Shown here piece after piece: positions 13,523 through 38,561 of a stretch of DNA of 64,000 nucleotides. The notes beneath the pieces are model-generated. The model was given only the letters and a program-made list of their open reading frames with translations. It ran no database searches and was not told the DNA's origin. The number at the start of each line of letters is the position of its first letter. The first letter of the stretch is position 1. The position numbers were made by a program, and so were the translations under genes. The stretch is from Thermoproteota archaeon (GTDB lineage: Archaea > Thermoproteota > Thermoprotei_A > Sulfolobales > Ignisphaeraceae), in the NCBI GenBank assembly GCA_030550585.1, contig JAUQPB010000001.1, positions 608,001-672,000 on the forward strand, given 5' to 3'.

Positions 13523-13575
13523 ATGATGACCCCTTCATGCTCTGAACTCCACATGATGTGTGCTGGGATATCTGA
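13523..13575 (+). ncRNA. Box C/D methylation-guide sRNA
   Basis: C ATGATGA, 12-nt guide CCCCTTCATGCT, D' CTGA, C' ATGATGT, 12-nt guide GTGCTGGGATAT, D CTGA; canonical archaeal spacing. Confidence 0.85.
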
Positions 13576-14288: not shown

Positions 14289-14291
14289 CAA

Positions 14292-15743: not shown

Positions 15744-15857
15744 AATGTTTTATATAATTAATGTTTAAAAATTATTTTGATTAACCGTCGGCAATAAAAG
15801 TCAAATTTAGCCCAAGTGGATGTAAATTGTTTGTGCCATTTACACTATTTTCTATAT

Positions 15858-16838: not shown

Positions 16839-16912
16839 CTATACAACCAAGGTTTTACCACATTTTCAAACTTAAAGTTTTTGTATATGAAAATGTGCAT
16901 TCTATCAGTTTG

Positions 16913-17641: not shown

Positions 17642-17671
17642 CGTTTTTGCTACTCAGCTTTTTGAGCAAGT

Positions 17672-19506: not shown

Positions 19507-21010
19507 ATTTCACAGCCTCTAGATATACTGCCACAGGATCTCTCCTATATCTTCTCACCAAACTATGAAGCTGAATAACGTCCATACCCTTCTTAACTGC
19601 ATAGAGAAGCAGAGTCGCTCTTCTAACCAGATCCTCTAAAACATCCTCATAACCTATCAAAAGAAGCTGTGAGATATCCTTCAATAGCCTGCTCTCAGAT
19701 AAGTTAAAGAGCCAGGAATCGGATTCCCTATCCCATCTACACAAAAGCTTTACAGTAATCCTATTTGTTGTTGGATCATAGTCCCAGATCTCATGAATAT
19801 ATGTAACCTTTCTCACAATGTTAGCCCTATGCAAAAGCCTTTGAACTTGCACAAAAAGTTTTGCGGATGCTATAAGAGATACCGGCACATTCATTGGTGG
19901 CGAGGAGAGCCTCCTAATCAGAGACTCTACACTTTCTGCATGAATTGTTGTCAGCCCTCCATGACCTGTTGAAACAGCTTGGAAGAAGCTGTAGGCCTCT
20001 CTAGACCTTATCTCACCAAGTATTAGAACATCTGGTCTCTGCCTCATAGCAGCCTCGACCTGCGCCTGGAGAGTAACGTTCTGGATGTTTGGATCGCTAC
20101 TCAGTCTAGTTACCATGGATGTCCAGTTCTCGTGGAATGGCAGTCTAATCTCTTGGGTATCCTCTGCAGAGACTATCTTCAGTTCAGATGGTAGTAGCAT
20201 TGCAACAGCATTCAATACTGTTGTCTTGCCGGAGCCCGTCGGCCCATAGAATACTATCCCCTGTTTACTTTCAGCTGCCAGCCACATCAACGAGGCCACG
20301 CCAGGGTCTAGCATGCCACTGCTTATTAGCTCGACTATTGAGAAGGGGTTCTCTCTATACTTTCTAATAGTAAAGCTGTGACCATGTGTAGAAACTGTAT
20401 CGAGAACTATGTGCACCCTATAGCCCTCCGGCCTCAGAATGCCCTCCACAACTGGCTGTGCAATAGAAGCCTCTCTATCAGCTCTATAGGCAAGCTTCTT
20501 CACAATAGAGTTGAGCCTTTCAGAAGGCAGAGCAACATTTGTTTCCAGCCACTCATATCTCCTATGAAAAACATGAATAGGCCTGTCAACACCATCACAT
20601 GTTATATCCTCTATCTCAGGATCTCTAATGAACGGATCTACCTCTCCATAACCAACAAAATCCCTGAGAACATAGTAAACAACTCTGTCGAAGGAGCTCT
20701 TCGACTCCTCACATCTTCTTCTACCAAAAAACTTTCTACACAGGTTATACACCACATCACTTACATATTCATAGCCGTCATCAAAACCATTAAAACTTGA
20801 AAGCCTCTTCAACATCTCAACATCGCTAAAAATAGCCTCAACAACCCTCCTCTTAAGTTCTTCAAGAAAAAAAGTTAGCTCGGGTTCCCTAACAAAATAC
20901 CTCAGTTTGCCATCCAAACCCTTGACAATTGATATCTCGACCATTTCGCGAAAACCAACTCTATAACCTTCTACAACTTCATAGCCCTTATCGATAAGCA
21001 TGAACACCAC
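19448..21010 (-). CDS. Type IV pilus / secretion-superfamily assembly ATPase (AapE/ArlI-like)
   Basis: DPEIEDITCDG, SFTIRKY, Walker A GPTGSGKTT, AEDTQE, RQRPDVLILGEIR, TGHGGLTTIHA. Confidence 0.92.
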   Translation of the reverse strand: MVFMLIDKGYEVVEGYRVGFREMVEISIVKGLDGKLRYFVREPELTFFLEELKRRVVEAIFSDVEMLKRLSSFNGFDDGYEYVSDVVYNLCRKFFGRRRCEESKSSFDRVVYYVLRDFVGYGEVDPFIRDPEIEDITCDGVDRPIHVFHRRYEWLETNVALPSERLNSIVKKLAYRADREASIAQPVVEGILRPEGYRVHIVLDTVSTHGHSFTIRKYRENPFSIVELISSGMLDPGVASLMWLAAESKQGIVFYGPTGSGKTTVLNAVAMLLPSELKIVSAEDTQEIRLPFHENWTSMVTRLSSDPNIQNVTLQAQVEAAMRQRPDVLILGEIRSREAYSFFQAVSTGHGGLTTIHAESVESLIRRLSSPPMNVPVSLIASAKLFVQVQRLLHRANIVRKVTYIHEIWDYDPTTNRITVKLLCRWDRESDSWLFNLSESRLLKDISQLLLIGYEDVLEDLVRRATLLLYAVKKGMDVIQLHSLVRRYRRDPVAVYLEAVKFVGEPYRFKFVEEAEKKTI

Positions 21011-21685: not shown

Positions 21686-22135
21686 TTGGGATCCTGCTTG
21701 CGTGGTGTTAGCGAGTATGTGGCTACGGTAATAGTTGCTATAATAACTATGGCTGCTGGGATACTGGTATTCATTCACAGCTACTACATTGCGAACTCCT
21801 ATTACGACACACTTTCAAAGGCTTTTGAAGAGTCTTTGAAAAGCTCTTCTATGACAATCCTAGCCTCTTACATTTCTAACCAAAAACTTGTTGTAATAGC
21901 CTCCACAGGCTCTATGCCCATACAGATATACTCTATCTATGTCAATGAGAGCTTGGCTAACTGCGTTATAGCATTCAATAACACTGCAAAGCCATTAACA
22001 TATTCAAACCCTGTTGGCGTGTCTTACTACACAGCCTTTGTAGCCATGTGCAACGTTGGAAATGCAAGCTATGCAAATGTGAAAATAGTTTTCGATGGGG
22101 GTACAGAATATGCAAAAGCCCAGAAGATTGGTTAG
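21686..22135 (+). CDS. Minor type IV pilin
   Basis: Class III signal RG|VSEYVATVIVAII, helix, then beta-rich domain; divergent from the major pilin. Confidence 0.75.
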   Translation: MGSCLRGVSEYVATVIVAIITMAAGILVFIHSYYIANSYYDTLSKAFEESLKSSSMTILASYISNQKLVVIASTGSMPIQIYSIYVNESLANCVIAFNNTAKPLTYSNPVGVSYYTAFVAMCNVGNASYANVKIVFDGGTEYAKAQKIG

Positions 22136-23924
22136 AGGAATCTCAGCCGTTATAGGCACTGTAATTCTCATCGTCATAATGGTTCTATTCATAGCTCTCT
22201 ACATAGCATCTATAGAAAGATTTGGGGCACTAAGCCGAGAGGTGGCAAGCAGACTGAGCAATTTGCAAGAGTCTTCATCTACAATAAGAAATATCGATGC
22301 TAGCTGGAGCTACAACGGGACATACACAACCATTTTTATAGACAACCAAGCACCCAAAGCAATAGTCGTAGTATCCATTGCGATGGTGTACAAAGACGGT
22401 TCATACACAATAATATCGAGGCTAAACAAAACCATAAACGCATTCATATCGGTGAACAATGCATCATACAACCAACTGCAACTACCTCTCGCAATACCAC
22501 CAGCAACACAAGCAGTAATAGCCATAAAAACCAGCCGAGAACCAGCAGCGCTATCCCTAGCCATAGAAGCATCGCCCATAACAGCTATTATAATACCAAA
22601 GAAACCAGCCAGCATCAATACAACAACTGCTAGGCTAGAGCCGCAAGGAGGAAACGGAACAGTTATATGGATAGGAAGGGTGCAAGTCCCAGTAATAGCA
22701 ATAAAAAAAGGTATAACGATGCAACAGTATCCTATTAGTGGCAACAAAAGCAAGGAAGAGGTCCGTTTTAATGAATCAATTCTTTTTGGCAATGTATTGA
22801 AGGCCTACAAAATAAACATTACAACTACTATTAACACAAATATTTCTGTCAGCATAAATATCCTAATGAATGGTACAAACATTTCGAGCTATTGTAGTGT
22901 CTCTCAAAGCTTACCCTCTCAAAAGCCGCATCCTCAAGGATTAAAAGGCAACTTCACTATTGTGTGCTACTATCCTATCAATGGGGAACCTGTTCAACTA
23001 GTCAATATTACCATCGTTCTTCGGCGGTCCGAAGGAGGAGGAATGTTTGAATATAAAATTTATAACGTTTCTGAGTATGTCTTTGGATATGTTGGCTACT
23101 CTCTATTTGACTCTCTTATAGTGGGGCTTGGAGGCTCAACACAAATAGCTTTCTACAATCTCTCTTCTATCAGCCTAGGATCTCTACAACCTGTTTTCAA
23201 TACCAGCTCGTATTCATATTTTGATGGCTCTGTTGCCATAGCCTATGACTCTCAAAGCTATAGGCTCTACATGGTTAATAGAAGTGGTGTATTCTCCTGG
23301 GATTCTCTAGGATGGTCTTCTGTCACCTCTAGTTGTAGGTCTGTTGGTGTTGGCGCTGCCATCAATATTGTGGGTGATAGGATTGTTGTTTTTCCTGGTG
23401 GATACAGAAACTACATCTGTGTACTCGATTTATCAAGGGGTAGTGTAGCTAACGTGTCTTTGGATGGCTTTAAACTCTATGAATACACCTCATCAGCTGT
23501 CTATAGAGATTCCATAGTCTTTACAGCTCTGGATGGTAGTGGAGGTGTAAATGTATTGTTGTTCAATGTTACAACAGGTTATGTAAAACCATTGTGGAGG
23601 ATACCCATATACGCTATAGCTGGTGTTGCAGTAGATGGAAATAGCTCAAGGGTTTACATAGTGTCTGGCAACTCTTGGAGGTGCGCTAAACCACAGTGCA
23701 ACTCGTATCAATATATGAAGATTTTTGTTGGCTCGCTGGAAACAGGCTTTTTCAGCTATATGGATGTGCCTATGCAGTTTACTGTGCAAAGCGTGATTGG
23801 CTATGGTAATAGGGTGGGGATGTACAGAGACAAACTTCTTGTTGTAGACTATGGCACTGTTTTACTCATAGATCAGAAGGGTCTTGGACTAACAAGATAT
23901 GCAAATGCTTACCATGTTCAGTGA
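22095..23924 (+). CDS. Large pilin-like protein with a C-terminal beta-propeller-like domain (candidate adhesin; start possibly ATG 22110)
   Basis: Class III signal RG|ISAVIGTVILIVI; many N-x-S/T sequons; blade-like segments AIAYDSQSYRLYMV, GVAVDGNSSRVYIV, RDKLLVVD. Confidence 0.65.
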   Translation: MGVQNMQKPRRLVRGISAVIGTVILIVIMVLFIALYIASIERFGALSREVASRLSNLQESSSTIRNIDASWSYNGTYTTIFIDNQAPKAIVVVSIAMVYKDGSYTIISRLNKTINAFISVNNASYNQLQLPLAIPPATQAVIAIKTSREPAALSLAIEASPITAIIIPKKPASINTTTARLEPQGGNGTVIWIGRVQVPVIAIKKGITMQQYPISGNKSKEEVRFNESILFGNVLKAYKINITTTINTNISVSINILMNGTNISSYCSVSQSLPSQKPHPQGLKGNFTIVCYYPINGEPVQLVNITIVLRRSEGGGMFEYKIYNVSEYVFGYVGYSLFDSLIVGLGGSTQIAFYNLSSISLGSLQPVFNTSSYSYFDGSVAIAYDSQSYRLYMVNRSGVFSWDSLGWSSVTSSCRSVGVGAAINIVGDRIVVFPGGYRNYICVLDLSRGSVANVSLDGFKLYEYTSSAVYRDSIVFTALDGSGGVNVLLFNVTTGYVKPLWRIPIYAIAGVAVDGNSSRVYIVSGNSWRCAKPQCNSYQYMKIFVGSLETGFFSYMDVPMQFTVQSVIGYGNRVGMYRDKLLVVDYGTVLLIDQKGLGLTRYANAYHVQ

Positions 23925-24065: not shown

Positions 24066-25400
24066 ATGCCTAAAGAAGAGTTTGAGCCATATCATGCATG
24101 GGTTGACAAAAGCTATGTTCCAGACCCCAAGAAGGATGTCATTGTAACATTTAGGATTACTCCTGCAGAGGGCTTCTCTATAGAGGATGTTGCTGGGGGT
24201 GTTGCCGCTGAGAGCAGTACTGGTACCTGGACAACGCTATATGTCTGGTATGATCAGAACAGGTTGGAGAAGCTGAAGGGTAGGGCATACTTCTTTAAGG
24301 ATCTTGGCGATGGCAGCTGGCTTGTGAGGATAGCCTACCCAGCAGAATTATTTGAAGAGGGCAATATGCCAGGTTTCCTCGCTAGCGTTGCTGGCAACAT
24401 ATTCGGTATGAGGAGGGCTAAGTGGCTGAGAGTTGAGGATATTTACATGCCTCTAGACTTCGTCAAGTATTTCAAAGGGCCTATAAAAGGAGTGCGCGGA
24501 GTTAGAGATATATTCAAAGTCTATGATAGACCTATTGTCGGTACGGTTCCAAAGCCTAAGGTTGGCTATACAGCAGATGAGGTTGAGAAGCTAGCCTACG
24601 AAATACTGTCTGGTGGCATGGACTACATAAAAGATGATGAGAATCTTGTTAGCCCAAGCTACTGCAGGTTTGAGGCAAGGGCAAAGGCTATTATGAAGAT
24701 AATTGACAGAGTTGAGAAGGAGACTGGAGAGAGGAAGGTGTGGTTCGCAAATATAACAGCAGATGTTAGAGAAATGGAGAAGAGGCTAAAGCTTGTAGCA
24801 GACTATGGAAACCCATATATCATGGTAGACGTTGTTATAACTGGGTGGTCAGCTCTAACATACATAAGGGATAAGGCCGAGGAGTACGGGCTTGCAATAC
24901 ACGCTCACAGGGCAATGCATGCAGCGATGACTAGAAATCCATACCACGGAATATCGATGTTTACATTGGCAAAGCTGTTCAGGATAATAGGCGTTGACCA
25001 GCTACACATTGGAACGCCGGAAGTTGGGAAGCTAGAGGCGAAGACGATAGACGTTATTAGAAATGCTAAGGTGTTGAGAGAAAATCCATTCAAGCCAGAC
25101 CCAGATGACATATACCACCTAGAACAGGAATTTGGATCAATAAAGCCAGCAGTTCCAGTATCATCTGGCGGTCTACACCCAGGAACGTTGCCAGAGGTTG
25201 TTAGGGTGCTAGGCAAGGATCTTGTAATGCAGATTGGCGGCGGTACGATAGGCCATCCAGATGGGCCAAGAGCAGGAGCAGCTGCTGTTAGACAGGCTCT
25301 AGAAGCAATCTCAAAGGGCATTCCGCTAGAGGATTATGCAAGAGATCACAAAGAGCTTAGAAGAGCTTTGGAGAAGTGGGGAACTGTAAGACCCATATAA
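24066..25400 (+). CDS. rbcL: Ribulose-1,5-bisphosphate carboxylase, form III
   Basis: AAESSTGTW, GNIFG, KPKVG, GGMDYIKDDEN (K189), HAHRAMH, GKLE, SGGLHPG, GGGTIGHP; 444 aa; catalytic motifs intact, so not an RLP. Confidence 0.97.
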   Translation: MPKEEFEPYHAWVDKSYVPDPKKDVIVTFRITPAEGFSIEDVAGGVAAESSTGTWTTLYVWYDQNRLEKLKGRAYFFKDLGDGSWLVRIAYPAELFEEGNMPGFLASVAGNIFGMRRAKWLRVEDIYMPLDFVKYFKGPIKGVRGVRDIFKVYDRPIVGTVPKPKVGYTADEVEKLAYEILSGGMDYIKDDENLVSPSYCRFEARAKAIMKIIDRVEKETGERKVWFANITADVREMEKRLKLVADYGNPYIMVDVVITGWSALTYIRDKAEEYGLAIHAHRAMHAAMTRNPYHGISMFTLAKLFRIIGVDQLHIGTPEVGKLEAKTIDVIRNAKVLRENPFKPDPDDIYHLEQEFGSIKPAVPVSSGGLHPGTLPEVVRVLGKDLVMQIGGGTIGHPDGPRAGAAAVRQALEAISKGIPLEDYARDHKELRRALEKWGTVRPI

Positions 25401-25471: not shown

Positions 25472-26236
25472 TTGAATAACGATGTTGAGAAGAAGCTGCT
25501 TGAATCTCTAAAAGGTGGCAGACCATCAGCAATATTTATCGATATAGATGGTGTTATGACAATCGAGAGAGGCTCTTATGTAATAGATTTGGAGCTTATA
25601 GAGCTTCTTAGAAAGGTTATGGAGTACAACATTCCAGTGTGTCTTGTTTCTGGAAACGCCTACCCAACTGTTTTAACGTTGCAGAGGTATCTAGGTCTTT
25701 CACCAATATTCATAGCTGAAAATGGCTGTGTGATACAGCTGTATAAAGAGTTCATAAAGATATGTAGAGAAAATCTCGATCCGCTTGTAGATGAAATAGA
25801 AAAGGAATTCCATTTGAGGAGATCGACAAGTAATTTATATAGGCTATGCGATAGAGCTTTTCACGTGCCAGATGATGTAAAATCCAATCCTAGCAAGGCC
25901 AGAGAACTGGAGAAGAATATTATGGAGAAATATCCAGGTATATACGCCTTGTACACAGGCTATGTGCTACACATATACCCAAGATACTGCAGCAAAAGCA
26001 ATGCAATAAGAATTGTTGCAGAGAAAATGGGGTTGGATCTAGAAAAAGCTATAGCAATCGGTGATAGCGTGACAGATGTGGACATGATTAAAGCCGTTGG
26101 GATAGGTGTTGCTGTTGGAGATGCAGATGAAGAGGCAAAGAGGGATGCAAAAATAGTTCTACCGTTCAAGGCATCCCAATCAACAAAATATTTGATTTCA
26201 ACTCTACTCAAACATATTTCACAAACTCGTGAATAG
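25472..26236 (+). CDS. Archaeal phosphoglycolate phosphatase (HAD IIB, SPP-like)
   Basis: IDIDGVMT, SGNA, IAENG, SKSNA, AIGDSVTD; typical of the TA0175-type PGPase family. Confidence 0.8.
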   Translation: MNNDVEKKLLESLKGGRPSAIFIDIDGVMTIERGSYVIDLELIELLRKVMEYNIPVCLVSGNAYPTVLTLQRYLGLSPIFIAENGCVIQLYKEFIKICRENLDPLVDEIEKEFHLRRSTSNLYRLCDRAFHVPDDVKSNPSKARELEKNIMEKYPGIYALYTGYVLHIYPRYCSKSNAIRIVAEKMGLDLEKAIAIGDSVTDVDMIKAVGIGVAVGDADEEAKRDAKIVLPFKASQSTKYLISTLLKHISQTRE

Positions 26237-26359: not shown

Positions 26360-28912
26360 GTGATAAAGAGGCTGGTTATGGCAGTAGCTGTGGTAGCTCT
26401 AATAGTTATTGGGGCGCTAATCTACTACATGGCTCTCTATACAAATAGACCCAGTACACCAGCATTAACCACCTCCACACCATTAACACCGCCGATACAA
26501 ACAGTGTTAACACCAACAATAGAAACAAGTATCTCCTCAATAACGCAGCTACAAACACCTACAGCTTTGTCCAGCATTACGATAAAACCCTTGAACACAA
26601 CATTTTTAAGTAGCACAACATCACCATCTTATATCATGACTCCTACAAATACAGAAACAAGAGAGACTACTAGCACACCTACACCAACCCAGATGACCCA
26701 GTCTACAACATTACCCCAACCAGCATTTACTGTAACTAGTGTTGCACCATCTATTGTGGTGAGTAGTTATACCCAGAACGCCTCTTGTTATGATGTCGTC
26801 GAAATAAACTTTGATGTTAGTGGTATAAAGTATTCTAATCCTTTTGACAGTAGCGAGATAGATGTCTATGCAACTATTCTTACACCAGATAACAAATTAT
26901 TGGCGGTTCCAGCATTCTATACAAAAGACTATGAAATTCAAAATGTGTCGCTAAATGAAGATCTTGTTGTGTTTATGGGGAAGCCCCACTGGAGCATAAG
27001 ATTCACGCCACAGGCTGAGGGAGTATACAAAGTTTCTTTAATTGCTAAGAGCAAGGATGTTGAGATTAGAAGCAATACTCTAGAGATCTATGTGAAGAGC
27101 TGTGACAAATCTTTGAAGGGTTTTGCACATTTTGATAAGGATAGCGGGTATATAAGATTTGACAATGGCTCTTCACAGATTCTTATCGGGCTAGACTTGG
27201 CGTGGGCGCCCAAGGCAAGTGCATCAATATCGTTTTACAGAAGCTGGTTTGAGAGATTGAGTAATAGTGGTGTGAAGGTTGTTAGAATAGGTCTTGTGCC
27301 ATGGTCTCTCAACCTAGAGTGGAACAAGCTCCACTCATACGACTTAGCATCTGCTGCTAGACTAGATGAGATATTGGAGCTTGCTAGAAAATATGACATC
27401 TACATAATATTCGTTTTCATGTGGCATGACGAGCTGGCGAGCAAATGGAGCGACAACCCCTATAATGCTAAAAACGGTGGTTTTCTGGCTTCTCCAGAAC
27501 AGTTTTGGAGTAATCAAAAAGCTATAGAGATTTTCAAGGACAGGGTAAGATATGTCATTGCTAGGTGGGGATACTCTCCAAACATAATTGCGTGGGAACT
27601 TGTAAACGAGGCTGATCTAACAACAAACTTTTACCAGGCAAGAGACAGCTTTGTTTCGTGGGTGGCTAATCTAAGCTCCTATGTAAAGTCATTGGATCCA
27701 TACAAAAGAGCTGTTACAATCAGTCTAGCAGACTACAACTCTGAGCCGAGGGTGTGGCAGCTAGATACAATAGACATTATAACTGTTCATAGATATGGTC
27801 CTTCAGGGCTCAAAGACATTGCATCAGCGTTTCCAGAGATCATAGAATCTCTGAGAGCAAAATATGGTAAACCCGTTGTCATAACCGAGTTCGGAGACGA
27901 TTACAGATGGATTGGATACCCAGGTTTCACCGGAACACCTTATTGGGCTTTAGACAAGAGTGGCGTTGGTTTGCATGAGGGGCTTTGGAGCTCCATATTT
28001 GCAGGCTCGCCAATCTCTGCTATGAGCTGGTGGTGGGATACCCAGATAGAGAGGTATAGTCTGTTCTATCACTTCAAAGCCCTAAGCAACTTTCTAGGTG
28101 GTTTAGACCCCCTAAAAAGTGGGTTGAGCAAAGTTGATGTAGTGGTGGAGAATGCGACTACAGGTAGAGGCTATATATCGAATATAACGATATACCCCAT
28201 GGCTGGGTGGATCACGCCTGGAGGTGGACAACAAAAACAGAATACATATGTTATCAATCCGAATGGATCTATAGAAGGCGATCTATCTCTACTAAGTAGC
28301 TTTGTATATGGAAAGAGCCACTATCAAAACTTCTTAAACCCGATATTCAATGTCACAATGCTTCAAAAGGGGAGGTTTATAATACATATAAACTCTGTTG
28401 GGAGGGGAGGAGCAAAAGCCAGCATATATGTTGACGGTGTGAAGATTAAGGAAGTTGATTTGCCTGATAAGGATGGTAAGAGTGATGAGGCGGCAAACGA
28501 ATATGGAATCGATATAGAAGTTGATCTAGAGCCTGGCGAACATGCCATTAAAATAGATAATGATGGAGTTGACTGGTTCACATGGGACTATATAATAATA
28601 GAAAATGCTGTCTATGCAAAGGCGAAGATCCAGGCATTAGCACTAGGCAACAGAACCTTTGTCATGCTTTGGATTAGAAACAAAGACTATAACTGGTGGA
28701 ATGTGATAAACAATGTCACCATAGATAAGATGGAGAACGTTACAATATCTCTAAACAATCTAGAGGACGGTGTCTACAAAATTGAGTTTTGGGACACGTA
28801 CCAGGGTATTGTAGTGCATGAAGAGAATGTCAATGTATCTGGTGGTAGAATTGAGATTGTTATTAAAGAGCTTGACAAGGATATAGCCATAAAAATATTT
28901 AAAATTGGATAG
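26360..28912 (+). CDS. Membrane-anchored multidomain GH5-like endoglucanase (EBI-244-like, with DUF5060-like domain)
   Basis: TM helix, T/P-rich stalk, NPFD...VPAFY...WSIRFTP domain, RYVIARWGYSPNIIAWELVNE (E417), KPVVITEFG (E510), MSWWWD, C-terminal beta domains. Confidence 0.8.
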   Translation: MIKRLVMAVAVVALIVIGALIYYMALYTNRPSTPALTTSTPLTPPIQTVLTPTIETSISSITQLQTPTALSSITIKPLNTTFLSSTTSPSYIMTPTNTETRETTSTPTPTQMTQSTTLPQPAFTVTSVAPSIVVSSYTQNASCYDVVEINFDVSGIKYSNPFDSSEIDVYATILTPDNKLLAVPAFYTKDYEIQNVSLNEDLVVFMGKPHWSIRFTPQAEGVYKVSLIAKSKDVEIRSNTLEIYVKSCDKSLKGFAHFDKDSGYIRFDNGSSQILIGLDLAWAPKASASISFYRSWFERLSNSGVKVVRIGLVPWSLNLEWNKLHSYDLASAARLDEILELARKYDIYIIFVFMWHDELASKWSDNPYNAKNGGFLASPEQFWSNQKAIEIFKDRVRYVIARWGYSPNIIAWELVNEADLTTNFYQARDSFVSWVANLSSYVKSLDPYKRAVTISLADYNSEPRVWQLDTIDIITVHRYGPSGLKDIASAFPEIIESLRAKYGKPVVITEFGDDYRWIGYPGFTGTPYWALDKSGVGLHEGLWSSIFAGSPISAMSWWWDTQIERYSLFYHFKALSNFLGGLDPLKSGLSKVDVVVENATTGRGYISNITIYPMAGWITPGGGQQKQNTYVINPNGSIEGDLSLLSSFVYGKSHYQNFLNPIFNVTMLQKGRFIIHINSVGRGGAKASIYVDGVKIKEVDLPDKDGKSDEAANEYGIDIEVDLEPGEHAIKIDNDGVDWFTWDYIIIENAVYAKAKIQALALGNRTFVMLWIRNKDYNWWNVINNVTIDKMENVTISLNNLEDGVYKIEFWDTYQGIVVHEENVNVSGGRIEIVIKELDKDIAIKIFKIG

Positions 28913-28925
28913 CCTCTGTAAAAGT

Positions 28926-30392
28926 CTATGCCTTGTAGAGCTCTTGTAGTTTTACCCATTTTTTCTCAAAACTTTCTTTGAATTTCCTGTAGATTTTTGT
29001 TAATTCAGCATCTGGATCAACAATCTCTACCGGTTTTAGGAATCTCTGTTTAATCTCGTTTATGTTGGTATATATCTTGTTTCTATATAGAACAGGTATT
29101 ATTGTTCCAATGCCGACGAGATCTCCATGTACAACGACTCTTCGCTCATATACAGAGGCTCTTATTCTATTCCAAAGCTTGGATCTGACAGCACCGCCTG
29201 TTAAATTAACTTCGCTTATATTGACATTGAATAGCTTTTGGAATAAATCTATGTAGTAGTTTTCGAGCATGGTTATTCCAAGCACCACACTCCTCAATAT
29301 CCTGCCAATGACAACATCTCTCGACTGGTCATACATAATAAAGTTTATGAGTGCAGGAGCGAGGTTAGGATCGTAAAATGGGCCTCTATCTCCATATGGG
29401 AAGAAGAGATACTCTGTCCCAGCCTCAACAGCCTCGATATATCTAAAAGCCTCTCCTACAGATAATCCAAAGACTTTTTCTGAAATCCATGATAGATAGG
29501 CTCCTGTGAAACCTGTTGCTGAACCAGCTAGATATCCGTCTAGGGGGTGTACATGGTAGTATATAGCTGGGTGCATGATTATCCTATCAACAGATATTTT
29601 TGGCACTGTCGTTGATCCTGTATATATATTTACATCTCCTTTTCCAATAGCTCCTCCAGCTAGTGCAGCTGCATTTCCATCTGTCATACCCTGGTACACG
29701 CTTGCACCATATAAACCCAGTCTTTGTGCAATGCGGCTCTTAGCTCTACATATAAACTCCCCCGGTGGGGCTAAACCGGGGAGCTTATCTATTTCTATGC
29801 CTATTGCGTTGTATAGAGGTTCAAACCATTTTGGAGGTCTTGAGAGTATATCTAGACCAAACTTCAATGCATTCGTATAATCAGTTCTAACATCTTCCCA
29901 CGGCTCTCCCTCGTCATAGCAAAGCCTGTAGAGCAGCCATGTTGCAGCAGGGACAAACTTATAAACATTTCCATATATGTTGCTAAGAGTTTTTTTCATG
30001 AAGAGCATCTTGACGAAAGGCGATGACACATCAACGCTAACACCATGTTTTGAAAGCTCGTTGACAGCCTCAAGACTCTTGATCTCATCAAAGACATCAC
30101 CCCTCTTTTCATAGTACATAACTGGGCCGTGGAGAGGGTTACCAAGTTTGTCTATGGCTATGAAGGTTCCTGATGTGCTATCCACAGAGACATGTTTCTC
30201 ACAGTCTGTGCAGTTCTTAACAACAGTTGGCATAGCCTCGTCTATTGCCTTGATCCACTCCTCAACAGCTTGCTTTGATATACTGGCTTTTCCAGCTGAT
30301 ATTAGATTCCCCTCTACATCATATACCTCTACACGAACGCCACTACTACCAACATCTATTCCAATAAATAGCTGTTTGCTCATTTGAATCAC
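28926..30392 (-). CDS. FGGY carbohydrate kinase, D-ribulose/xylulose kinase-like (SePSK/AtXK1-like, C5-phosphorylating)
   Basis: GIDVGSSGVR, VDSTSGT, TDYTNALKFG, GMTDGNAAALAGG, GSTTVPK, TGGAVRS; the DYxNALKxG and TDxxAA motifs resemble the SePSK/AtXK1 subgroup. Confidence 0.75.
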   Translation of the reverse strand: MIQMSKQLFIGIDVGSSGVRVEVYDVEGNLISAGKASISKQAVEEWIKAIDEAMPTVVKNCTDCEKHVSVDSTSGTFIAIDKLGNPLHGPVMYYEKRGDVFDEIKSLEAVNELSKHGVSVDVSSPFVKMLFMKKTLSNIYGNVYKFVPAATWLLYRLCYDEGEPWEDVRTDYTNALKFGLDILSRPPKWFEPLYNAIGIEIDKLPGLAPPGEFICRAKSRIAQRLGLYGASVYQGMTDGNAAALAGGAIGKGDVNIYTGSTTVPKISVDRIIMHPAIYYHVHPLDGYLAGSATGFTGAYLSWISEKVFGLSVGEAFRYIEAVEAGTEYLFFPYGDRGPFYDPNLAPALINFIMYDQSRDVVIGRILRSVVLGITMLENYYIDLFQKLFNVNISEVNLTGGAVRSKLWNRIRASVYERRVVVHGDLVGIGTIIPVLYRNKIYTNINEIKQRFLKPVEIVDPDAELTKIYRKFKESFEKKWVKLQELYKA

Positions 30393-31882
30393 CTTGTATA
30401 ACCTATTATCTTCAAAAACCTTTCGTAGGCCTCTTCATGCTCTCCGCTGTGCCTAGGCTCAAAGACCCTGACCTTGTAGGAGTTTCTAACATATTCTCTA
30501 AGCTCTTTCAAAGATTTTATAATGCCGAGTCCAGCAACCTGCAAGAGAACGTTTCCTATGGACGTCGCCTCCTCGGGCCCGGCATAAACAACCTTGTTTG
30601 TGAAATCTGCTGTTAGCTGATTCAAGAACCAGTTTCTAGAGCCTCCACCAAATATGTTTATCCCCTTGAGCCTTCTTCCAAGAAGATCCTCAGCCTGTTC
30701 GAAGACAAGTCTATACTTCAATGCGAGGCTCTCGAAAACAATTCTAAACAGCTCTCCAAGCCCCTGAGGCTTTCTCTGCCCGGTTTTCTCAAGATAAGAC
30801 ATTATAGCGTCTACCATGTTTTCTGGTGCTATAAACCCCTCATAGTCTGGGTCTATAAAGGCTGTGAATGGCTTTGCCTCTTGAGCTATCCTCAAAATCT
30901 CTTCATATGATAGCTGCTGACCTCTATCAGCTAAAACCCTTCTAATCTCCTCAACAATCCACATACCCTGCACATTTCTTAGAAATGTTATTGTGTTGAA
31001 TGCCCCACCCTCATTGGTATAGTTGTACTCCATAGCCTTTCTATTGATTAGCGGATGAGGAAGTTCAACACCAACCAGAGACCATGTGCCAGAGCTTACA
31101 TAGCCAACATCCTCAGAAACCATGGGCCCAGCAGCAATGGCTGAGGCGGTGTCATGTGTTGCAGGCGCAACAACGTCTATTTCCTTTGGTATGTCAAGTT
31201 CAGAAGCAAGTCTAGGATTAATCTTTCCAATTCTTGTTCCAGGCTCTATAACATCTGGGAATATATGTGTGGGAATACCCAAAGCTTCTAAAATGTCGAA
31301 GGCCCATTTCTTTGCGCCTGGATCTAGAAACTGTGTTGTTGTGGCCTCAGTGTATTCAGCAAGTTTTTCGCCTGTTAGCCAGTAGTTGAAGAGGTCTGGT
31401 ATCATGAGAAATGTCTTGGCTATTCTAAGCTTCGGATCATTGTAGTAGACCATGGAGAATATCTGATACAAGGTGTTTATTCTTATAAACTGTATACCCG
31501 TTCTCTCATAGATCTTCTCTTTAGGAACCCTCTTGAAAACCTCTTCCATCATGCCCTCGGTTCTCGGATCTCTATATGTATGGGGATTTTCTATGAGCAT
31601 CCCCCTCTCATCTAGTAAAGCAAAGTCTATACCCCAGGTGTCAACACCTATTGAAACAAGATCCTTGCCATATCTCTTATATGCAAGTTTAATAGCTGTC
31701 TTCATCTCATGCCATATCCTCAAAACATCCCAGTAGAGACCATCATCAACCCTTATCATAAAGTTTGGCCATCTATAAAGCTCCTCAACACTCACAGTCT
31801 TCTCCTTCTCATCTACAAAACCCATCATTGCCCTGCAACTAGATGCTCCAAGGTCGAACGCCAAAATCGCTATTTTGCCCAT
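30389..31882 (-). CDS. rhaB: Rhamnulokinase/fuculokinase-like FGGY kinase (C1-phosphorylating)
   Basis: AFDLGASSCR, GVDTWGIDF, YRDPRT, TGIQFxxINTLYQ, MIPDLFNYWLTG, HDTASA, SSGTWSLVG, TNEGG, ESLALKY, GGGSRN, AGPEEAT. Confidence 0.85.
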   Translation of the reverse strand: MGKIAILAFDLGASSCRAMMGFVDEKEKTVSVEELYRWPNFMIRVDDGLYWDVLRIWHEMKTAIKLAYKRYGKDLVSIGVDTWGIDFALLDERGMLIENPHTYRDPRTEGMMEEVFKRVPKEKIYERTGIQFIRINTLYQIFSMVYYNDPKLRIAKTFLMIPDLFNYWLTGEKLAEYTEATTTQFLDPGAKKWAFDILEALGIPTHIFPDVIEPGTRIGKINPRLASELDIPKEIDVVAPATHDTASAIAAGPMVSEDVGYVSSGTWSLVGVELPHPLINRKAMEYNYTNEGGAFNTITFLRNVQGMWIVEEIRRVLADRGQQLSYEEILRIAQEAKPFTAFIDPDYEGFIAPENMVDAIMSYLEKTGQRKPQGLGELFRIVFESLALKYRLVFEQAEDLLGRRLKGINIFGGGSRNWFLNQLTADFTNKVVYAGPEEATSIGNVLLQVAGLGIIKSLKELREYVRNSYKVRVFEPRHSGEHEEAYERFLKIIGYTR

Positions 31883-31961
31883 GGTCTCACAACATTAGTT
31901 AATAAAGGTTTCAAAAATAAAAACTTTTCATCGAATTACTGCCAATTATTATTATCAAACA

Positions 31962-32779: not shown

Positions 32780-32831
32780 GTGATGAGCTCGTAAGGTGAA
32801 ATGATTAGGTGATTGGGGAGGTTTCGGCTGA
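32780..32831 (+). ncRNA. Box C/D methylation-guide sRNA
   Basis: C GTGATGA, guide GCTCGTAAGGTGAA, D' ATGA, C' GTGATTG, 12-nt guide GGGAGGTTTCGG, D CTGA overlapping ATG 32831. Confidence 0.7.
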
Positions 32832-33553
32832 TGAGAATTAAAATAAAACTGTTTTCGCTTTTTAAAGAGATTTTCAACTCAGATGAAATTGAGGTACAGT
32901 TTGAGAAAAATAGTGTGACTGTCGAAGAGCTAAAGGAGGCTCTAGCTAAGATCAGTCCTAAGGCGAGGAATGTTTTAAGCAGTGTGGAGCCTATTATCAT
33001 GGTTAACGGAATTGTTGCTGATGCGAATACAAATATTGGTGAGGTGGATGAGGTAGCCCTTCTACCACCTATGTCAGGAGGCTCGAAGCATGTTAGTGTC
33101 AAACTCTTTGTAGATGATCGTGATGTTGATATAGAGTCGAGGGTTAGGGATATTTTGACCAAGGTTGGTGGTGAGGGTGTGGGAGCAATAGCGATTTTTG
33201 TTGGTGTTGTCAAGGATGTTGTAGATGGGTATAAGGTTAGAGAGCTTGTTTATGAGGCTTATGAACCCTATGCAACAAAGACCCTGGAGAGAATAGCTGT
33301 TGAGGAAAGCGTTAATGAGAACATTAAAGCGATTGAGATTATGCATAGAGTTGGTGCTGCCAAACCTGGTGAAAAAACCCTTTGCATAATAGTTGCTTCG
33401 AGGAATAGAAAAGAAGCGTTAGATACATTGTCAAGAGTTTTAGAGAGGGTAAAGCACGAGGTTCCCATATTCAAGCTTGAGAAGAGAGAGGATGGAGAAT
33501 ACTATGTAATTGGAGATGGTAAAAGAGTTAAGAGCCCGAGCGAGGTTTCTTAA
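32831..33553 (+). CDS. moaE: Fused molybdopterin synthase MoaD-MoaE (ORF track starts 32813; likely ATG 32831)
   Basis: Ubiquitin-like MRIKIKLF...DEVALLPPMSGG, then MoaE GAIAIFVGVV, YEAY, HRVG, ERVKHEVPIFKLE. Confidence 0.9.
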   Translation: MRIKIKLFSLFKEIFNSDEIEVQFEKNSVTVEELKEALAKISPKARNVLSSVEPIIMVNGIVADANTNIGEVDEVALLPPMSGGSKHVSVKLFVDDRDVDIESRVRDILTKVGGEGVGAIAIFVGVVKDVVDGYKVRELVYEAYEPYATKTLERIAVEESVNENIKAIEIMHRVGAAKPGEKTLCIIVASRNRKEALDTLSRVLERVKHEVPIFKLEKREDGEYYVIGDGKRVKSPSEVS

Positions 33554-34542: not shown

Positions 34543-35772
34543 TTAGGTAAATAGGTAGCTTTTCTGAGGGTTCGTTAAACCAAGTGCTATTAATGCATCG
34601 CCTCCAACCTCAACACCGTATGTCATGATGAGTCTATACAGCCTCTTCAACGATGCGGTTTCAAGTCTTATGAATCTATCGGCATAGTCTATTGGTATCG
34701 GTACAGCGTTTTGCGATGTATTATGCATTACATATTCTAGGACATCTTCTATTCTTGACCTTGGATAGACATCCAGTCTTATAGCTTGGGGATACACCAT
34801 ATCGCTAACCGGTTTGTAGAAGACTATAGCAGTTTCTCTCATTACATCACAGATGTTCTTTAATCCACTAACAGCATTGCCGCTCGAACAGGTTTCAAGC
34901 ATATCCAGTATTGTTTGTATTCTTTTCTGTTTTAAAGCCTTTGACGATCTCTTCATTATGCTGAGGTGCATCTTAAATATGTCTAGATAGCTGCTTATCA
35001 CAGCATATTCTCCTGGTTCAAGAACATAGCTGAGTATAACCTTGTCATTCAGTCTCCTCAATAGCCTGGCAAGTTCGCTGTCAAGTCCCTCGATATAGGA
35101 TGCTATAAATCTGCTTGAAACTCTTTTAACAACTCCAACAACAGGCAACCCAAGATCGGACGCCTTTCTAAGTAGTCTCAGCAACTTTGATGAACCTATG
35201 GATATAAGCTCATCAATTTCTTTGATATTTTCTAGGCTATTCTCATCGGCGTTTTTAGCTGGGTTGAAGAATGAAGGGCGGGTAGAGAAGTAGAGAGACC
35301 CGTCAAGCATAACCATATCTACATAACTATGTTTATCTAGAGCCTTTAGAGCAGTGTCATACTCTAGAATCTTTGCATAAACCTCTATAGCTGTATTCAC
35401 ATACCTTTCACTGTTTCCAACAATTGACGACATTCTGCATATCTCATATGATGAGGTGCCGCTTGGGCCAACAACAACATATCCAGAGACTATAACGCCG
35501 AAGACCCCAGATACTATCTCTAGTGTTGGCTTACTCCATGTGCTATCAACTGCTACAACTATTCTACCACCATTTTCTACAACCCCAGAGAATTTTCTGA
35601 TCTCGAGAAATCTTCTAACCTTATCCCTATTCTCTAGTGCAGGCCTAGCATAATTTGCATAGACCTTGCTTACAATATCCTTTGCCGCCTCAACCAAAGC
35701 TGTTGTTAGCTCGGGGTTTTCGTCTGTAAGCTCGATTAATTTTCCAGAAAACTCTTCATCCTCATGCAACAT
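34543..35772 (-). CDS. nurA: NurA-family nuclease
   Basis: AVDST, MLDGSL, GVVKRVSS, DKVILS...LEPGE, PIPIDYAD; overlaps the upstream herA. Confidence 0.8.
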   Translation of the reverse strand: MLHEDEEFSGKLIELTDENPELTTALVEAAKDIVSKVYANYARPALENRDKVRRFLEIRKFSGVVENGGRIVVAVDSTWSKPTLEIVSGVFGVIVSGYVVVGPSGTSSYEICRMSSIVGNSERYVNTAIEVYAKILEYDTALKALDKHSYVDMVMLDGSLYFSTRPSFFNPAKNADENSLENIKEIDELISIGSSKLLRLLRKASDLGLPVVGVVKRVSSRFIASYIEGLDSELARLLRRLNDKVILSYVLEPGEYAVISSYLDIFKMHLSIMKRSSKALKQKRIQTILDMLETCSSGNAVSGLKNICDVMRETAIVFYKPVSDMVYPQAIRLDVYPRSRIEDVLEYVMHNTSQNAVPIPIDYADRFIRLETASLKRLYRLIMTYGVEVGGDALIALGLTNPQKSYLFT

Positions 35773-37408
35773 CTCTGACCTTCACCAGCAATGGTCTTCT
35801 AAGCGGATTGCCAAGCCCTGTGAAGAAGAATTCTCTTGGTGATAGAAGTGGAAGTGTGTACTCCATATACTCCACACCCTCGAGCCAGTTCCTCAACTCG
35901 TTGTAGTCTCCAGATGTTTGCATTCGCGAGAAGAAAACTGTGTTTATATTTCCTCTAATCTCTGGTGCGAGATCTATGACCCTCTGCGATGATAGGATTA
36001 GTCCGAATCCCCATTTCCTGCCCTCTCTACTAGTCCTAGCAATAATGTCTTTGGCAGGGTCACATCCATAGGCACAGCAATAGTTGTGAGCCTCATCGAC
36101 AACAGCAATTATATTGGCTCTACTCCTCTTGTATAGAATTGTATCCCAGATTTTCTTAATGAATTGATATACAATAGCATTTTTAGCACTATACTCAACT
36201 TCTGTCGACAAATCAATTATTATAACCCTTTTTGCATCATTGAAAAGAGCTGTGACAACGTCATCAATAACAGTTGACCTCCTAGACATGTTTTGCTCGA
36301 AAAACGCCCTACCAACTCTTGTGTATAGCAGTAACCTCAGCTTTTCAATTGTTTGCTGCCTAGCATTCATATTTTTCAGATACGTTTCAAGATCATTGAC
36401 AAATTGGTTAAAGTCCCATTTGAATAGCCCTTTCGAGCTGAGCTCTTTGTATTTCTTCAGCAGTTCCCCAAGCTCTATATCCCCATTTCTTCTTCCAAAA
36501 CCCCTTGTCTTTGCCTGTTGTAACGGGCTTTCCACCTCCTCAACAACACTCCTAATATATTCTATTACAGCCCCATAGACATAATCTTGGTGCTCGGATC
36601 TCCTCAGACCCATTTGATCAACAATTATATCAGCTATAACATCCGGCTCTAGAACAATATTTGAAGAGTCTATAACCGATATCGAGTTTTCAAAGCCTAT
36701 CCACCTAGACAAGTCGGCGTAGTCAACACCTGTATGATCAAATATGACTATTCTATAGTTTGGCGCCTTCCTCAGAACCTCTTCTATAATTGCTTTTACC
36801 AGTCTAGACTTTCCAGATCCTGTTGCACCCAAAACAGCTATGTGATAGTCTAGCGCAATTGGGTTAACATCTATCTCGAGGTTAGCAAATTTGTGGTAGC
36901 CTATGAAGAGCCCCTGGGGGAGCTTCAATATGCCTGATAATGCATCTCCCCTCTCAACTATATAAACATGGCTGCCAGGTCTTGGAATAGCGAAACTCAG
37001 AGAAACCCCGCCACCAGAGCCTATCTCCCTTATAATCTCAACATAGCTATGCATGAGAGGTGCTGAGAAGCTGTGGCTTTTGTCAGGGTCGAAAACTGTT
37101 GGAAGAGCATTGGCATCTATTGCAAGGTCCTTTTTAGTGCTACTCTTAAACACTCCGAGAAATCTCCTACCCTCTAGGAAATCATCTATTATCGCCAGCA
37201 TCTCATCCCTTACATAGTCCATCGCATCTCTAGATATTCTGACAGGTGCTAGAGAAGCTCTAGCACCAGATGTTATGACGCCGACAAGTCTACCGAAGTC
37301 TCTAGGGCTCCAGCTCCACAAGCATACCGACCGAGGGGTTTGAGATATTAATACGCTAATATCTTTTGAGAGCAAAGCGAAAGTTTGCAGGATAAAAAGG
37401 CTGTGCAT
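35762..37408 (-). CDS. herA: HerA-family ATPase/helicase (true start probably TTG near 37321)
   Basis: HAS-barrel-like N-terminus, HIAVLGATGSGKS, IFDHTG, VVDEAH, REGRKWG...SQR. Confidence 0.85.
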   Translation of the reverse strand: MHSLFILQTFALLSKDISVLISQTPRSVCLWSWSPRDFGRLVGVITSGARASLAPVRISRDAMDYVRDEMLAIIDDFLEGRRFLGVFKSSTKKDLAIDANALPTVFDPDKSHSFSAPLMHSYVEIIREIGSGGGVSLSFAIPRPGSHVYIVERGDALSGILKLPQGLFIGYHKFANLEIDVNPIALDYHIAVLGATGSGKSRLVKAIIEEVLRKAPNYRIVIFDHTGVDYADLSRWIGFENSISVIDSSNIVLEPDVIADIIVDQMGLRRSEHQDYVYGAVIEYIRSVVEEVESPLQQAKTRGFGRRNGDIELGELLKKYKELSSKGLFKWDFNQFVNDLETYLKNMNARQQTIEKLRLLLYTRVGRAFFEQNMSRRSTVIDDVVTALFNDAKRVIIIDLSTEVEYSAKNAIVYQFIKKIWDTILYKRSRANIIAVVDEAHNYCCAYGCDPAKDIIARTSREGRKWGFGLILSSQRVIDLAPEIRGNINTVFFSRMQTSGDYNELRNWLEGVEYMEYTLPLLSPREFFFTGLGNPLRRPLLVKVRDVA

Positions 37409-37826: not shown

Positions 37827-38561
37827 CTATACATTAATCCTTGTAAGAGCCTCTAAAACTATCTTAGCTGCTCTATCGACATAGTCTCTAAGCTCTTCGG
37901 CTGATGCGAATCCGAGCTCCTCTACGAGAGAGTCGCTGACCATTAGCAGTGCCCCTGTCTTCAGATTTCTCATGGCACCTAGCATAAAGAGACCTGCACA
38001 CTCCATCTCAACAGCTACAACACCTCTACTTGTCCACTTTCTAACGAAATCAGGGTCTTCAGCATAGAAAGCATCGCTACTGACAACGGGTCCTAGAACA
38101 TAGTTTACACCAGCCTTCTGAGTCTCTTCAACAAGGGTCTTTAGAACCTCGAAACTTGGTGCTGTTGCTGTGCACACATTCTCTTTTAGATACTGGTAGA
38201 ATGCGCCTCCAGGGTAGTAGGCAGCGGCTGTTGGGATTACTACATCGCCTATTCTAAGCCCCTTGACCATTGCACCACAAGTTCCGAATCTGACAACAAC
38301 CTTTGCTCCCAGCATTGCTAGCTCTTCAACAACTAACATAGAGGATGGGTGGCCAACACCATGGACAGCAACAGATATTGGAACACCTTTATACGAGCCA
38401 GTATATATTGTGAAGCCTCTATTCGTATTAACTACCCTAGGATTCTCAAGCATTTTAGCGACCTGGTCTACTCTTGCAGGATCTCCAGCAATTATCACTC
38501 TCTCTGCAATATCTCCCCTCCTAGCCTTTATGTGTATGGGTCCAACCAATCTTCTCACCAA
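37827..38561 (-). CDS. deoD: Purine nucleoside phosphorylase (hexameric DeoD/MTAP type)
   Basis: HIKA..GDIAERVIIAGDPAR, HGVGHPS, RFGTCGA, SSDAFYAE, AVEME, VSD. Confidence 0.9.
   Translation of the reverse strand: MVRRLVGPIHIKARRGDIAERVIIAGDPARVDQVAKMLENPRVVNTNRGFTIYTGSYKGVPISVAVHGVGHPSSMLVVEELAMLGAKVVVRFGTCGAMVKGLRIGDVVIPTAAAYYPGGAFYQYLKENVCTATAPSFEVLKTLVEETQKAGVNYVLGPVVSSDAFYAEDPDFVRKWTSRGVVAVEMECAGLFMLGAMRNLKTGALLMVSDSLVEELGFASAEELRDYVDRAAKIVLEALTRINV

Follow-up and report, generated by a model that had tools for sequence, protein, structure and literature searches.

Genes at the locus

The subject of this report is a pair of adjoining sugar kinase genes, which we call KinA and KinB, and the nearby gene rbcL for a form III RuBisCO, the carboxylase/oxygenase of ribulose 1,5-bisphosphate, from an archaeon of the family Ignisphaeraceae. 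The window, by which we mean the whole 64-kb stretch of DNA that was analysed (G000:C4:608001-672000), belongs to a source genome, G000, of 1.76 Mb and 99.9% completeness; the closest named proteins are those of Ignisphaera. Hereafter, G numbers denote genomes of the same order, C numbers contigs and L numbers scanned loci, while coordinates given alone are those of the window. The question is how the ribulose-1,5-bisphosphate (RuBP) for such a RuBisCO might be made, and the genes that bear on it are the following:

24066-25400, plus strand: RbcL, large subunit of form III RuBisCO (TIGR03326, 657 bits against a cut-off of 497.45)
25472-26236, plus strand: HAD-IIB phosphatase of the Ta0175/TK2301 "archaeal phosphoglycolate phosphatase" kind (TIGR01487, 135 bits against 122.75)
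26360-28912, plus strand: glycosidase-like open reading frame (ORF) of 850 amino acids between the HAD gene and KinB, with weak DUF5060 and GH2/GH42-like matches
28926-30392, minus strand: KinB, a divergent FGGY kinase of 488 amino acids with FGGY_N and FGGY_C domains
30389-31882, minus strand: KinA, the first gene of the pair, a RhaB/FucK-type FGGY kinase of 497 amino acids with FGGY_N and FGGY_C domains
31883-31961, minus strand: presumed promoter, a 79-bp intergenic stretch upstream of KinA with A/T-rich TATA-like stretches, as judged from the sequence

The rbcL gene is convergent with KinB and ends 3,526 bp from the KinB end. The initial annotation, which had described an FGGY tandem 3.5 kb from rbcL, is thereby confirmed in both the domains and the distance. 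By simple proportion, the chance of two given genes lying within 3.5 kb of each other in 1.76 Mb is about 0.4%. The 850-residue ORF probably represents an insertion that stands outside the module, because most relatives do not have it at that position; G271, G317, G235 and others have KinB and rbcL 0.85-0.9 kb apart and the HAD gene alone between them. The alignment of RbcL shows the motifs KPKVGY, IKDDE, HAHRAMH, LHIG, GKLE, SSGGLH and GGG, which we take to carry the active-site residues.

KinA and KinB are tightly coupled whichever start codon holds for KinB. The GTGA overlap reported for the pair in the initial annotation is a different matter, as it exists only if KinB starts at GTG 30392. 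The alternative start at ATG 30383, 8 nt further on, lies 5 nt past the KinA stop with AGGTGAT in front of it, and it is the likelier one because it fits the N-termini of homologues better. Junctions of 5-15 nt with a Shine-Dalgarno-like motif were seen at several of the 10 related loci inspected, and KinA is followed by KinB with a gap of at most 35 bp in 11 of the 22 genomes of the order that carry KinB.

Two kinases of different kinds

Both domains of KinA exceed their gathering thresholds (FGGY_N 109.8 bits, FGGY_C 124.4 bits). With 458.3 bits on the rhamnulokinase model TIGR02627 (cut-off 527.95) and 392 bits on NF007925 (cut-off 639), KinA can be classified by sequence as a close relative of rhamnulokinases rather than as a certified RhaB member. 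Its best solved relatives are FucK of S. pneumoniae (4C23, 335 bits) and RhaB of E. coli (2CGJ, 282 bits), and its H-D-T-A-S motif aligns with FucK. Orthologues with 73-95% identity adjoin KinB or rbcL in related genomes.

KinA-type genes are not restricted to such surroundings. Five of the six genomes of genus g131 carry one immediately downstream of an isomerase-fold gene while having neither RuBisCO nor KinB, and other KinA-type genes lie beside those for a class II aldolase and an aldehyde:ferredoxin oxidoreductase, a pairing that is the signature of a ketose-1-phosphate aldolase route. Comparison of 12 KinA copies linked to rbcL or KinB with 13 copies that were aldolase-linked or came from RuBisCO-less genomes gave two fixed differences (I/V; F/L,Y), both conservative, and no gain of basic residues in the linked copies. 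This comparison is an argument, though not proof, against KinA being a specialised ribulose-5-phosphate (Ru5P) kinase. Taken with the RuBisCO-free occurrence and the aldolase pairing, it makes KinA look like an ordinary ketose C1 kinase. G000 has a second copy (C6:42750-43865; L007:8766-9890) beside a FucI-like gene and an aldolase II gene, which lacks about 140 N-terminal residues; no homologous sequence was found upstream of it in any frame. As this copy is truncated, and probably a pseudogene, the KinA of the window is the only intact one in G000. A single KinA is likewise present in G211, G235 and G337.

KinB also passes the gathering thresholds of both domains (FGGY_N 53.4 bits, FGGY_C 31.9 bits), and its best score on a curated model, 98.6 bits on XylB TIGR01312, falls below the cut-off of 380.25. 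It belongs to a mostly archaeal clade that is sharply bounded: its members score between 1043 and 297 bits, and the proteins that come after them, which are bacterial, start at 134 bits. When a profile of 29 clade members was compared with the PDB, AtXK-1 came out on top (5HTR, 120.8 bits, E 5e-34), together with SePSK (5HTN). Judged by best solved relatives, the labels given to the two kinases in the initial annotation (C1-type RhaB/FucK and SePSK/AtXK1) were right. The profile alignment reveals D-[GS]-T-S-G-T, D-Y-x-N-A-L-K-x-G, G-x-T-D and G-[DE]-R-x-P as motifs shared by KinB and SePSK/AtXK-1, at a low pairwise similarity (67 bits with phmmer). Residue D238 of KinB, within G-M-T-D-G, is invariant in the 29 sequences and is presumably the catalytic Asp. 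The AlphaFold model of KinB (pLDDT 92.2) has the FGGY fold, with a TM score of about 0.8 to XylB and gluconate kinase. We set aside the Foldseek search with this model as a clue to the substrate, since it returned generic gluconate, xylulose, glycerol and LsrK kinases at TM 0.75-0.84 and did not discriminate among them. In SePSK, bound D-ribulose places its O4/O5 on the catalytic Asp (PMC4880283). Because KinB keeps the residues responsible for this placement, the analogy points to phosphorylation at C5.

Linkage of the kinases to rbcL

Scanning one genome per species with an alignment as query yielded 72 KinB-related loci, and none with a single-protein query. The L loci and the G genomes overlap, many contigs being identical to judge by their lengths, so they are not independent sets. 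Within them, the association of the kinases with rbcL is kept through rearrangements and recurs in a second family. In the lineages without ribose-1,5-bisphosphate (R15P) isomerase, namely, Ignisphaeraceae (f1) and Acidilobaceae (f3), KinB or KinA lies 0.1-17 kb from rbcL in at least six gene orders. KinB and rbcL are less than 1 kb apart in G271, G317, G235, G379, G337, G373, G367 and G422. Their separation is 3.5 kb in three genomes (G000, G323, G078), rises to 5.6 kb in G211 and reaches 13-17 kb in three more (G330, G344, G386). An rbcL with 82-92% identity is found inside the KinB loci L020, L021, L022, L028, L031, L037, L038 and L042, and KinA is immediately upstream of KinB in L020, L024-L027, L029, L037, L038 and L046.

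We compared the arrangements in three genomes of the same genus (G271, G235 and G211) and in one of the other family (G078). In G271, KinA and KinB are followed by the HAD gene and rbcL in converging orientation, with a gap of 18 bp between KinB and the HAD gene. In G235, KinB converges on the rbcL-HAD pair, and KinA is 11 kb off, adjoining a ribokinase gene. In G211, a stretch of 10 kb holds KinB, a xylose-isomerase-fold gene, a FucI-like gene, aldolase II, KinA, rbcL and the HAD gene; KinA shares the strand of rbcL and is 146 bp upstream of it. In G078, from Acidilobaceae, sugar ABC permease genes and rbcL occupy one strand; a distance of 2.2 kb, within which two isomerase-fold genes lie on the opposite strand, separates rbcL from KinA-KinB. 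A second Acidilobaceae genome, UBA162 (L038/G468), has a cluster like that of G078 and no R15P isomerase. Where the kinase pair separates, it is KinB that remains beside rbcL-HAD. Other recurrent neighbours at KinB loci are genes of a ribose-type ABC transporter (Peripla_BP_4, a fused ABC ATPase and BPD_transp_2), xylose-isomerase-fold and FucI-type isomerases, ribokinase, and aldolase II followed by aldehyde:ferredoxin oxidoreductase.

The rbcL-HAD pair is itself kept in G271, G235 and G211 and in loci L020-L022, L028 and L031. According to PMC11032457, the kcat/Km of T. kodakarensis TK2301 is 126 s-1 mM-1 for RuBP versus 17.4 s-1 mM-1 for 2-phosphoglycolate, and this 2024 T. kodakarensis paper names Ignisphaera only as a RuBisCO-bearing genus without a TK1734-type phosphatase. 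The HAD enzyme could remove 2-phosphoglycolate or trim RuBP.

Absence of known routes to RuBP and phyletic pattern of KinB

Searches of G000 for the enzymes of the known routes to RuBP found none of them. For R15P isomerase, its only gene of the e2b2 family scores 232 bits on TIGR00511, below the cut-off of 314, and is of the MtnA type, with 390 bits on TIGR00512 (cut-off 279). The best match to AMP phosphorylase (TIGR03327) reaches 35 bits against 535 and lies beside tryptophan-pathway-like genes. The best match to phosphoribulokinase (PRK, PF00485) reaches 20.5 bits, below the cut-off, and covers the N-terminal P-loop region only. Across 18 related RuBisCO genomes (17 of Ignisphaeraceae and G078), AMP phosphorylase was found in none, and PRK gave only P-loop matches of about 20 bits; one of these genomes reaches the 22-bit PRK cut-off only with neighbouring stretches, 29 profile positions being covered. 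No R15P isomerase over the cut-off was detected in any of 26 Ignisphaeraceae or 27 Acidilobaceae genomes.

To survey the wider pattern, we searched a set of 201 genomes from the order for RbcL, R15P isomerase (over the model cut-off), KinB (E<=1e-60) and KinA-type (E<=1e-100). Form III RbcL was found in 95 genomes, R15P isomerase in 84, KinB in 22 and KinA-type in 26. Within the order, KinB goes only with RuBisCO: each of the 22 genomes with KinB also has RbcL, and KinB was found in 0 of the 106 genomes that lack RbcL. No match to R15P isomerase was obtained in 20 of the RbcL-positive genomes (17 of Ignisphaeraceae, G078, G346 and G438), and 17 of these 20 carry KinB. The three misses are G446 (55% complete), G346 (63%) and G438 (68%), the latter two having congeners with the isomerase. 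RbcL and R15P isomerase occur together in 75 genomes; five of these have KinB, never less than 19 kb from rbcL. In Ignisphaeraceae, where 17 of 26 genomes have RbcL, KinB and KinA are each present in 16 of these 17 and both are missing from the nine RbcL-negative genomes, so the three genes come close to all-or-none. RbcL was found in one of the 27 sampled Acidilobaceae genomes (G078), and there it lies near KinA-KinB.

The initial annotation had also remarked on the lack of an isomerase or class II aldolase nearby. This holds for the 64-kb window, in which no homologue of either was found; it does not hold beyond it. Contig C6 of G000 has both, a FucI-like isomerase and aldolase II being clustered there with the truncated KinA copy, a PfkB kinase and a xylose-isomerase-fold gene, while G211 has both between KinB and KinA. 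A second aldolase II gene of G000 is on C7, likewise outside the window; RhaA (PF06134) had no match in G000. Aldolase II proteins of Ignisphaera score 51.7-79.2 bits on the ribulose-1-phosphate aldolase model NF053831, whose cut-off is 300. On C7 (238085-242569; L092:7316-11569), an AP_endonuc_2 isomerase-fold orthologue is located between NUDIX and GH3 genes, 2 kb from RpiA. The gene is a neighbour of rbcL in relatives, and its setting on C7 might at most hint at pentose handling.

A candidate two-kinase route and its alternatives

The evidence for a two-kinase route is genomic throughout and consists of the gene identities, their coupling, their linkage, their co-occurrence and the absence of the known routes. 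Since the pair adjoins rbcL and no known RuBP-making enzyme was found, we propose that the KinA-KinB operon supplies RuBP to the neighbouring form III RuBisCO, KinA acting first and KinB second, and we give this reading a probability of about 0.5. The lineages that it would serve, Ignisphaeraceae and some Acidilobaceae, lack every known RuBP-forming enzyme. As for its substrates, the order of its kinases and the roles of its isomerase and phosphatase, we infer the following. A ribose-type ABC transporter would bring in a pentose, which a xylose-isomerase-fold or FucI-like isomerase would turn into D-ribulose. KinA, as a C1 kinase, would turn D-ribulose into D-ribulose-1-phosphate, and KinB, as an XylB/SePSK-related kinase working at the far end, would phosphorylate the latter at C5 to yield RuBP. 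RuBisCO would then convert RuBP and CO2 into two molecules of 3-phosphoglycerate. At a branch point, a class II aldolase may split ribulose-1-phosphate into dihydroxyacetone phosphate and glycolaldehyde, and the adjacent HAD enzyme may clear 2-phosphoglycolate or trim RuBP. KinA before KinB would be the simplest scheme because KinA resembles an ordinary C1 kinase and KinB appears RuBisCO-bound and C5-directed. According to PMC9700705, ribulose-1-phosphate is already established as an archaeal metabolite. The complete kinase-only route, in which ribose or arabinose reaches form III RuBisCO through D-ribulose and successive C1 and C5 phosphorylation by the two FGGY kinases, seems to us to have a little less than an even chance.

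Several points weigh against this reading. We know of no FGGY kinase that takes a phosphorylated sugar, and our literature search returned no report of one accepting a sugar phosphate. It was free D-ribulose rather than a phosphate ester that stimulated SePSK, the closest characterised relative of KinB (PMC4880283). Of the 18 RuBisCO genomes, 17 possess one MtnA-like gene each, without linkage to rbcL, and the best model for the PfkB kinase on C6 of G000 is ribose-1-phosphate kinase (191 bits against a cut-off of 330); the presence of these two leaves room for a conventional-style route, and the MtnA-like isomerase could be a supplier of RuBP or of ribulose-1-phosphate. G000 also has transketolase and RpiA, through which a pentulose 5-phosphate has another outlet. 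Outside the order, 22 of 35 KinB-family genomes have a RuBisCO-family match and 13 do not, most of the latter being haloarchaea whose KinB-like proteins show 30-36% identity. KinB coexists with R15P isomerase in five genomes of the order and in Bathyarchaeia, and so it is not simply a replacement. Moreover, the phyletic signal amounts to about two independent lineages, Ignisphaeraceae and Acidilobaceae, as related genomes are not independent, and linked kinases and rbcL can vanish jointly with one missing contig. A tree of 25 RbcL sequences, built with a transfer of the module between Ignisphaera and Acidilobaceae in mind, had an unresolved backbone from which no direction can be claimed, and we discarded it.

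It might be asked whether KinA and KinB are ordinary, unrelated sugar kinases, KinA, as a rhamnulose/fuculose/ribulose 1-kinase, feeding aldolase II and KinB, as a xylulose/ribulose 5-kinase, feeding transketolase, while RuBP is derived from ribose-1-phosphate via the PfkB kinase and an MtnA-like isomerase acting on R15P, and rbcL merely shares a carbohydrate island. The MtnA-like and PfkB genes, transketolase and RpiA are all at hand for such a scheme; clusters of a FucI-like gene, KinA and aldolase II exist on C6 and in G211; KinA-type genes and haloarchaeal KinB-like genes occur without RuBisCO; and glycosidases and sugar ABC transporters surround the loci. What the scheme leaves unexplained is the strict restriction of KinB to RuBisCO genomes of the order (22/22 against 0/106), its tight linkage to rbcL in the lineages without R15P isomerase and not in the five genomes with both, and the position of rbcL beside KinA-KinB in the sole RuBisCO-positive genome of 27 Acidilobaceae. 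The MtnA-like gene is, by score, of the methylthioribose-1-phosphate type besides being unlinked to rbcL, and no credible ribulose-phosphate 3-epimerase was found in G000. All in all, we regard this explanation as unlikely, yet as the chief alternative and one to be taken seriously. A reversed order, with KinB as a D-ribulose (or xylulose) 5-kinase producing Ru5P and KinA phosphorylating Ru5P at C1 as a non-homologous phosphoribulokinase, would agree with the response of SePSK to free D-ribulose, with the place of KinA in the C1-kinase clade and with the position of KinA immediately upstream of rbcL in G211. We nevertheless find it quite improbable, given that rbcL-linked KinA copies have no fixed active-site change (the two conservative positions in 12 versus 13 sequences mentioned above), that the single intact KinA of G000 and of G211 must serve the aldolase route too, that the gene order is KinA then KinB, and that it is KinB, not KinA, that is restricted to RuBisCO genomes.

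A nucleoside-fed variant, which is compatible with KinA-then-KinB as the best explanation, would start from phosphorylase-derived ribose-1-phosphate; an MtnA-like enzyme would convert it to ribulose-1-phosphate and KinB would form RuBP, KinA being a side entry for free ketoses. A nucleoside phosphorylase is encoded in the window 6 kb away, the MtnA-like gene is the only e2b2 member, and ribokinase adjoins KinB in L028 and KinA in G235. In four Bathyarchaeia loci of one genus, moreover, the MtnA-like gene is about 1.5 kb and ribokinase about 1.8 kb from KinB. There, however, SRP54 on the opposite strand lies between MtnA and KinB, and a true R15P isomerase is encoded in the same genomes. With SRP54, HisRS and tRNA endonuclease as housekeeping neighbours, we set this proximity aside as a weak sign of a ribose-1-phosphate link. 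Nor did the search results listed include a paper in which MtnA acts on ribose-1-phosphate, and we give the variant only a slim chance. Returning to the proposal that KinA and KinB act in succession to supply RuBP, we conclude that the two-kinase interpretation offered in the initial annotation is partly supported by the genomic comparisons. All the computational checks that the annotation had called for turned out in favour of this interpretation, which is nonetheless still a prediction.

Other features of the window and of KinB loci

Two further genes of the window deserve to be listed:

22095-23924, plus strand: ORF of 609 amino acids with no known family (no Pfam or NCBIfam match), on the strand of rbcL and 142 bp upstream of it
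37827-38561, minus strand: nucleoside phosphorylase PNP_UDP_1 (PF01048, 162 bits), 6 kb away from the kinase pair

The phosphorylase scores below the cut-offs of the DeoD and uridine phosphorylase models. It is a possible source of ribose-1-phosphate, although any tie to the module is speculative. A single ORF at 32813-33553 (plus strand) combines ThiS/MoaD and MoaE domains and thus encodes a fused molybdopterin synthase. The region is flanked by a NurA-HerA pair (34543-37408, minus strand) and by genes for a T2SS-E ATPase and two T2SS-F membrane proteins (17672-21010, minus strand), an archaeal pilus/secretion-type cluster. In one sediment metatranscriptome run, which had 5% of the sampled words, a 445-nt contig is identical to rbcL 24850-25294; only rbcL fragments were matched in this run, and no contig matched KinA or KinB, from which nothing follows about expression.

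Some KinB loci have other companions. In the Bathyarchaeia loci L043 (7629-10090) and L049 (833-3260), a TIGR01487-type HAD gene is directly downstream of KinB with no rbcL in the locus, and this pairing of KinB with HAD is independent of RuBisCO adjacency. In L025-L027, from metagenome-assembled genomes of Ignisphaera, KinA-KinB are followed (at about 11486-18930) by a LarA-like gene of the lactate racemase family, a third FGGY kinase, a transaldolase/FSA-family gene of 220 amino acids and a ribose-type ABC transporter, forming a larger sugar module. KinB or KinB-like genes are situated near parts of a phosphotransferase system (galactitol/ascorbate-type EIIC, Enzyme I) in L017 (G184:C72) and in the Haloferax loci L055-L058 and L064.

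Locus L045 (345-7821), from a record labelled bacterial, contains a gene for a RuBisCO-like protein divergent from that for a KinB-like kinase and, further on, genes for an aldolase II/epimerase, an aldose-epimerase-like protein, a second FGGY kinase that resembles XylB, and an oxidoreductase of the F420 type. The RuBisCO-like protein scores 331 bits on the form III model. In it, only the second Lys of KPK is lost, being replaced by Asn, and the H-R, H and G-G-G motifs are kept; from the alignment, we assume that both phosphate-site motifs are retained. In the haloarchaeal locus L062, a KinB-like gene is paired with that for a more degenerate RuBisCO-like protein. We count the neighbourhood of two FGGY kinases and a RuBisCO-like protein in L045 as a hint in favour of the two-kinase reading.

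Comparison with known systems and implications

The proposed route resembles the pentose bisphosphate pathway of the Thermococcus type in that form III RuBisCO would be a catabolic sink, turning pentose bisphosphate and CO2 into two 3-phosphoglycerate, and in its setting in an anaerobic hyperthermophile with a nucleoside phosphorylase near. It differs in that R15P isomerase and AMP phosphorylase were not found here and in that the proposed origin of RuBP is a ketose phosphorylated by two FGGY kinases, without passing through an aldose bisphosphate. With the haloarchaeal non-carboxylating pentose bisphosphate pathway, it would share D-ribulose-1-phosphate as a hub, and genes for a C1 kinase of the RhaB/FucK type, an isomerase resembling FucI, a class II aldolase and a HAD enzyme are found in the same genomes or loci. 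Here, in contrast, the set extends to KinB and RuBisCO, the aldolases remain far under the cut-off of the ribulose-1-phosphate aldolase model (52-63 bits against 300), and the HAD is of the Ta0175/TK2301 kind.

SePSK of Synechococcus elongatus and AtXK-1 of the Arabidopsis chloroplast, the closest solved relatives of KinB, have motifs in common with it and likewise come from RuBisCO-containing organisms, yet they are about 50 residues shorter, and SePSK was assayed on unphosphorylated sugars only (PMC4880283). PRK has the same net role as that proposed here, an ATP-dependent last step to RuBP, although unlike KinA and KinB it has an unrelated P-loop fold, and no credible PRK was found in these genomes. 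It serves the Calvin-Benson-Bassham cycle and the reductive hexulose-phosphate pathway of methanogens. A functional analogy for the proposed step of KinB is FruK, which phosphorylates a ketose-1-phosphate (fructose-1-phosphate) at the far end and so delivers fructose-1,6-bisphosphate to central metabolism; FruK, however, is a PfkB-family rather than an FGGY enzyme, and its substrate is a hexose instead of a pentose.

We found no paper describing a two-kinase route to RuBP. The full-text literature searched, which had subscription journals and bioRxiv supplements outside its coverage, contained no paper naming a ribulose-1-phosphate kinase and none joining FGGY, Rubisco, archaea and ribulose; beyond PMC4880283, it held no later functional assignment for SePSK/AtXK-1 (At2g21370). 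If the proposal is true, KinB would be the first FGGY kinase acting on a sugar phosphate, a ribulose-1-phosphate 5-kinase, and for the orphan kinases SePSK and AtXK-1 of oxygenic phototrophs, in cyanobacteria and chloroplasts, it would suggest a function that can be tested. A KinB-like activity might also account for the modules of FGGY kinases and RuBisCO-like proteins, and thermostable enzymes would become available for a short synthetic path from pentose to RuBP.

In non-autotrophic archaea, the substrate supply of form III RuBisCO defines the purpose of the enzyme. The known answers lead from AMP or nucleosides via R15P to RuBP, or through PRK, and here a whole family of cultivable hyperthermophiles has a bona fide RuBisCO without those supply enzymes. 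Should KinA and KinB act as we propose, these organisms would possess a new entry into RuBP that ties RuBisCO to sugar rather than nucleotide catabolism, and they would carry out a RuBisCO-dependent pentose fermentation without the pentose phosphate pathway, PRK or R15P isomerase.

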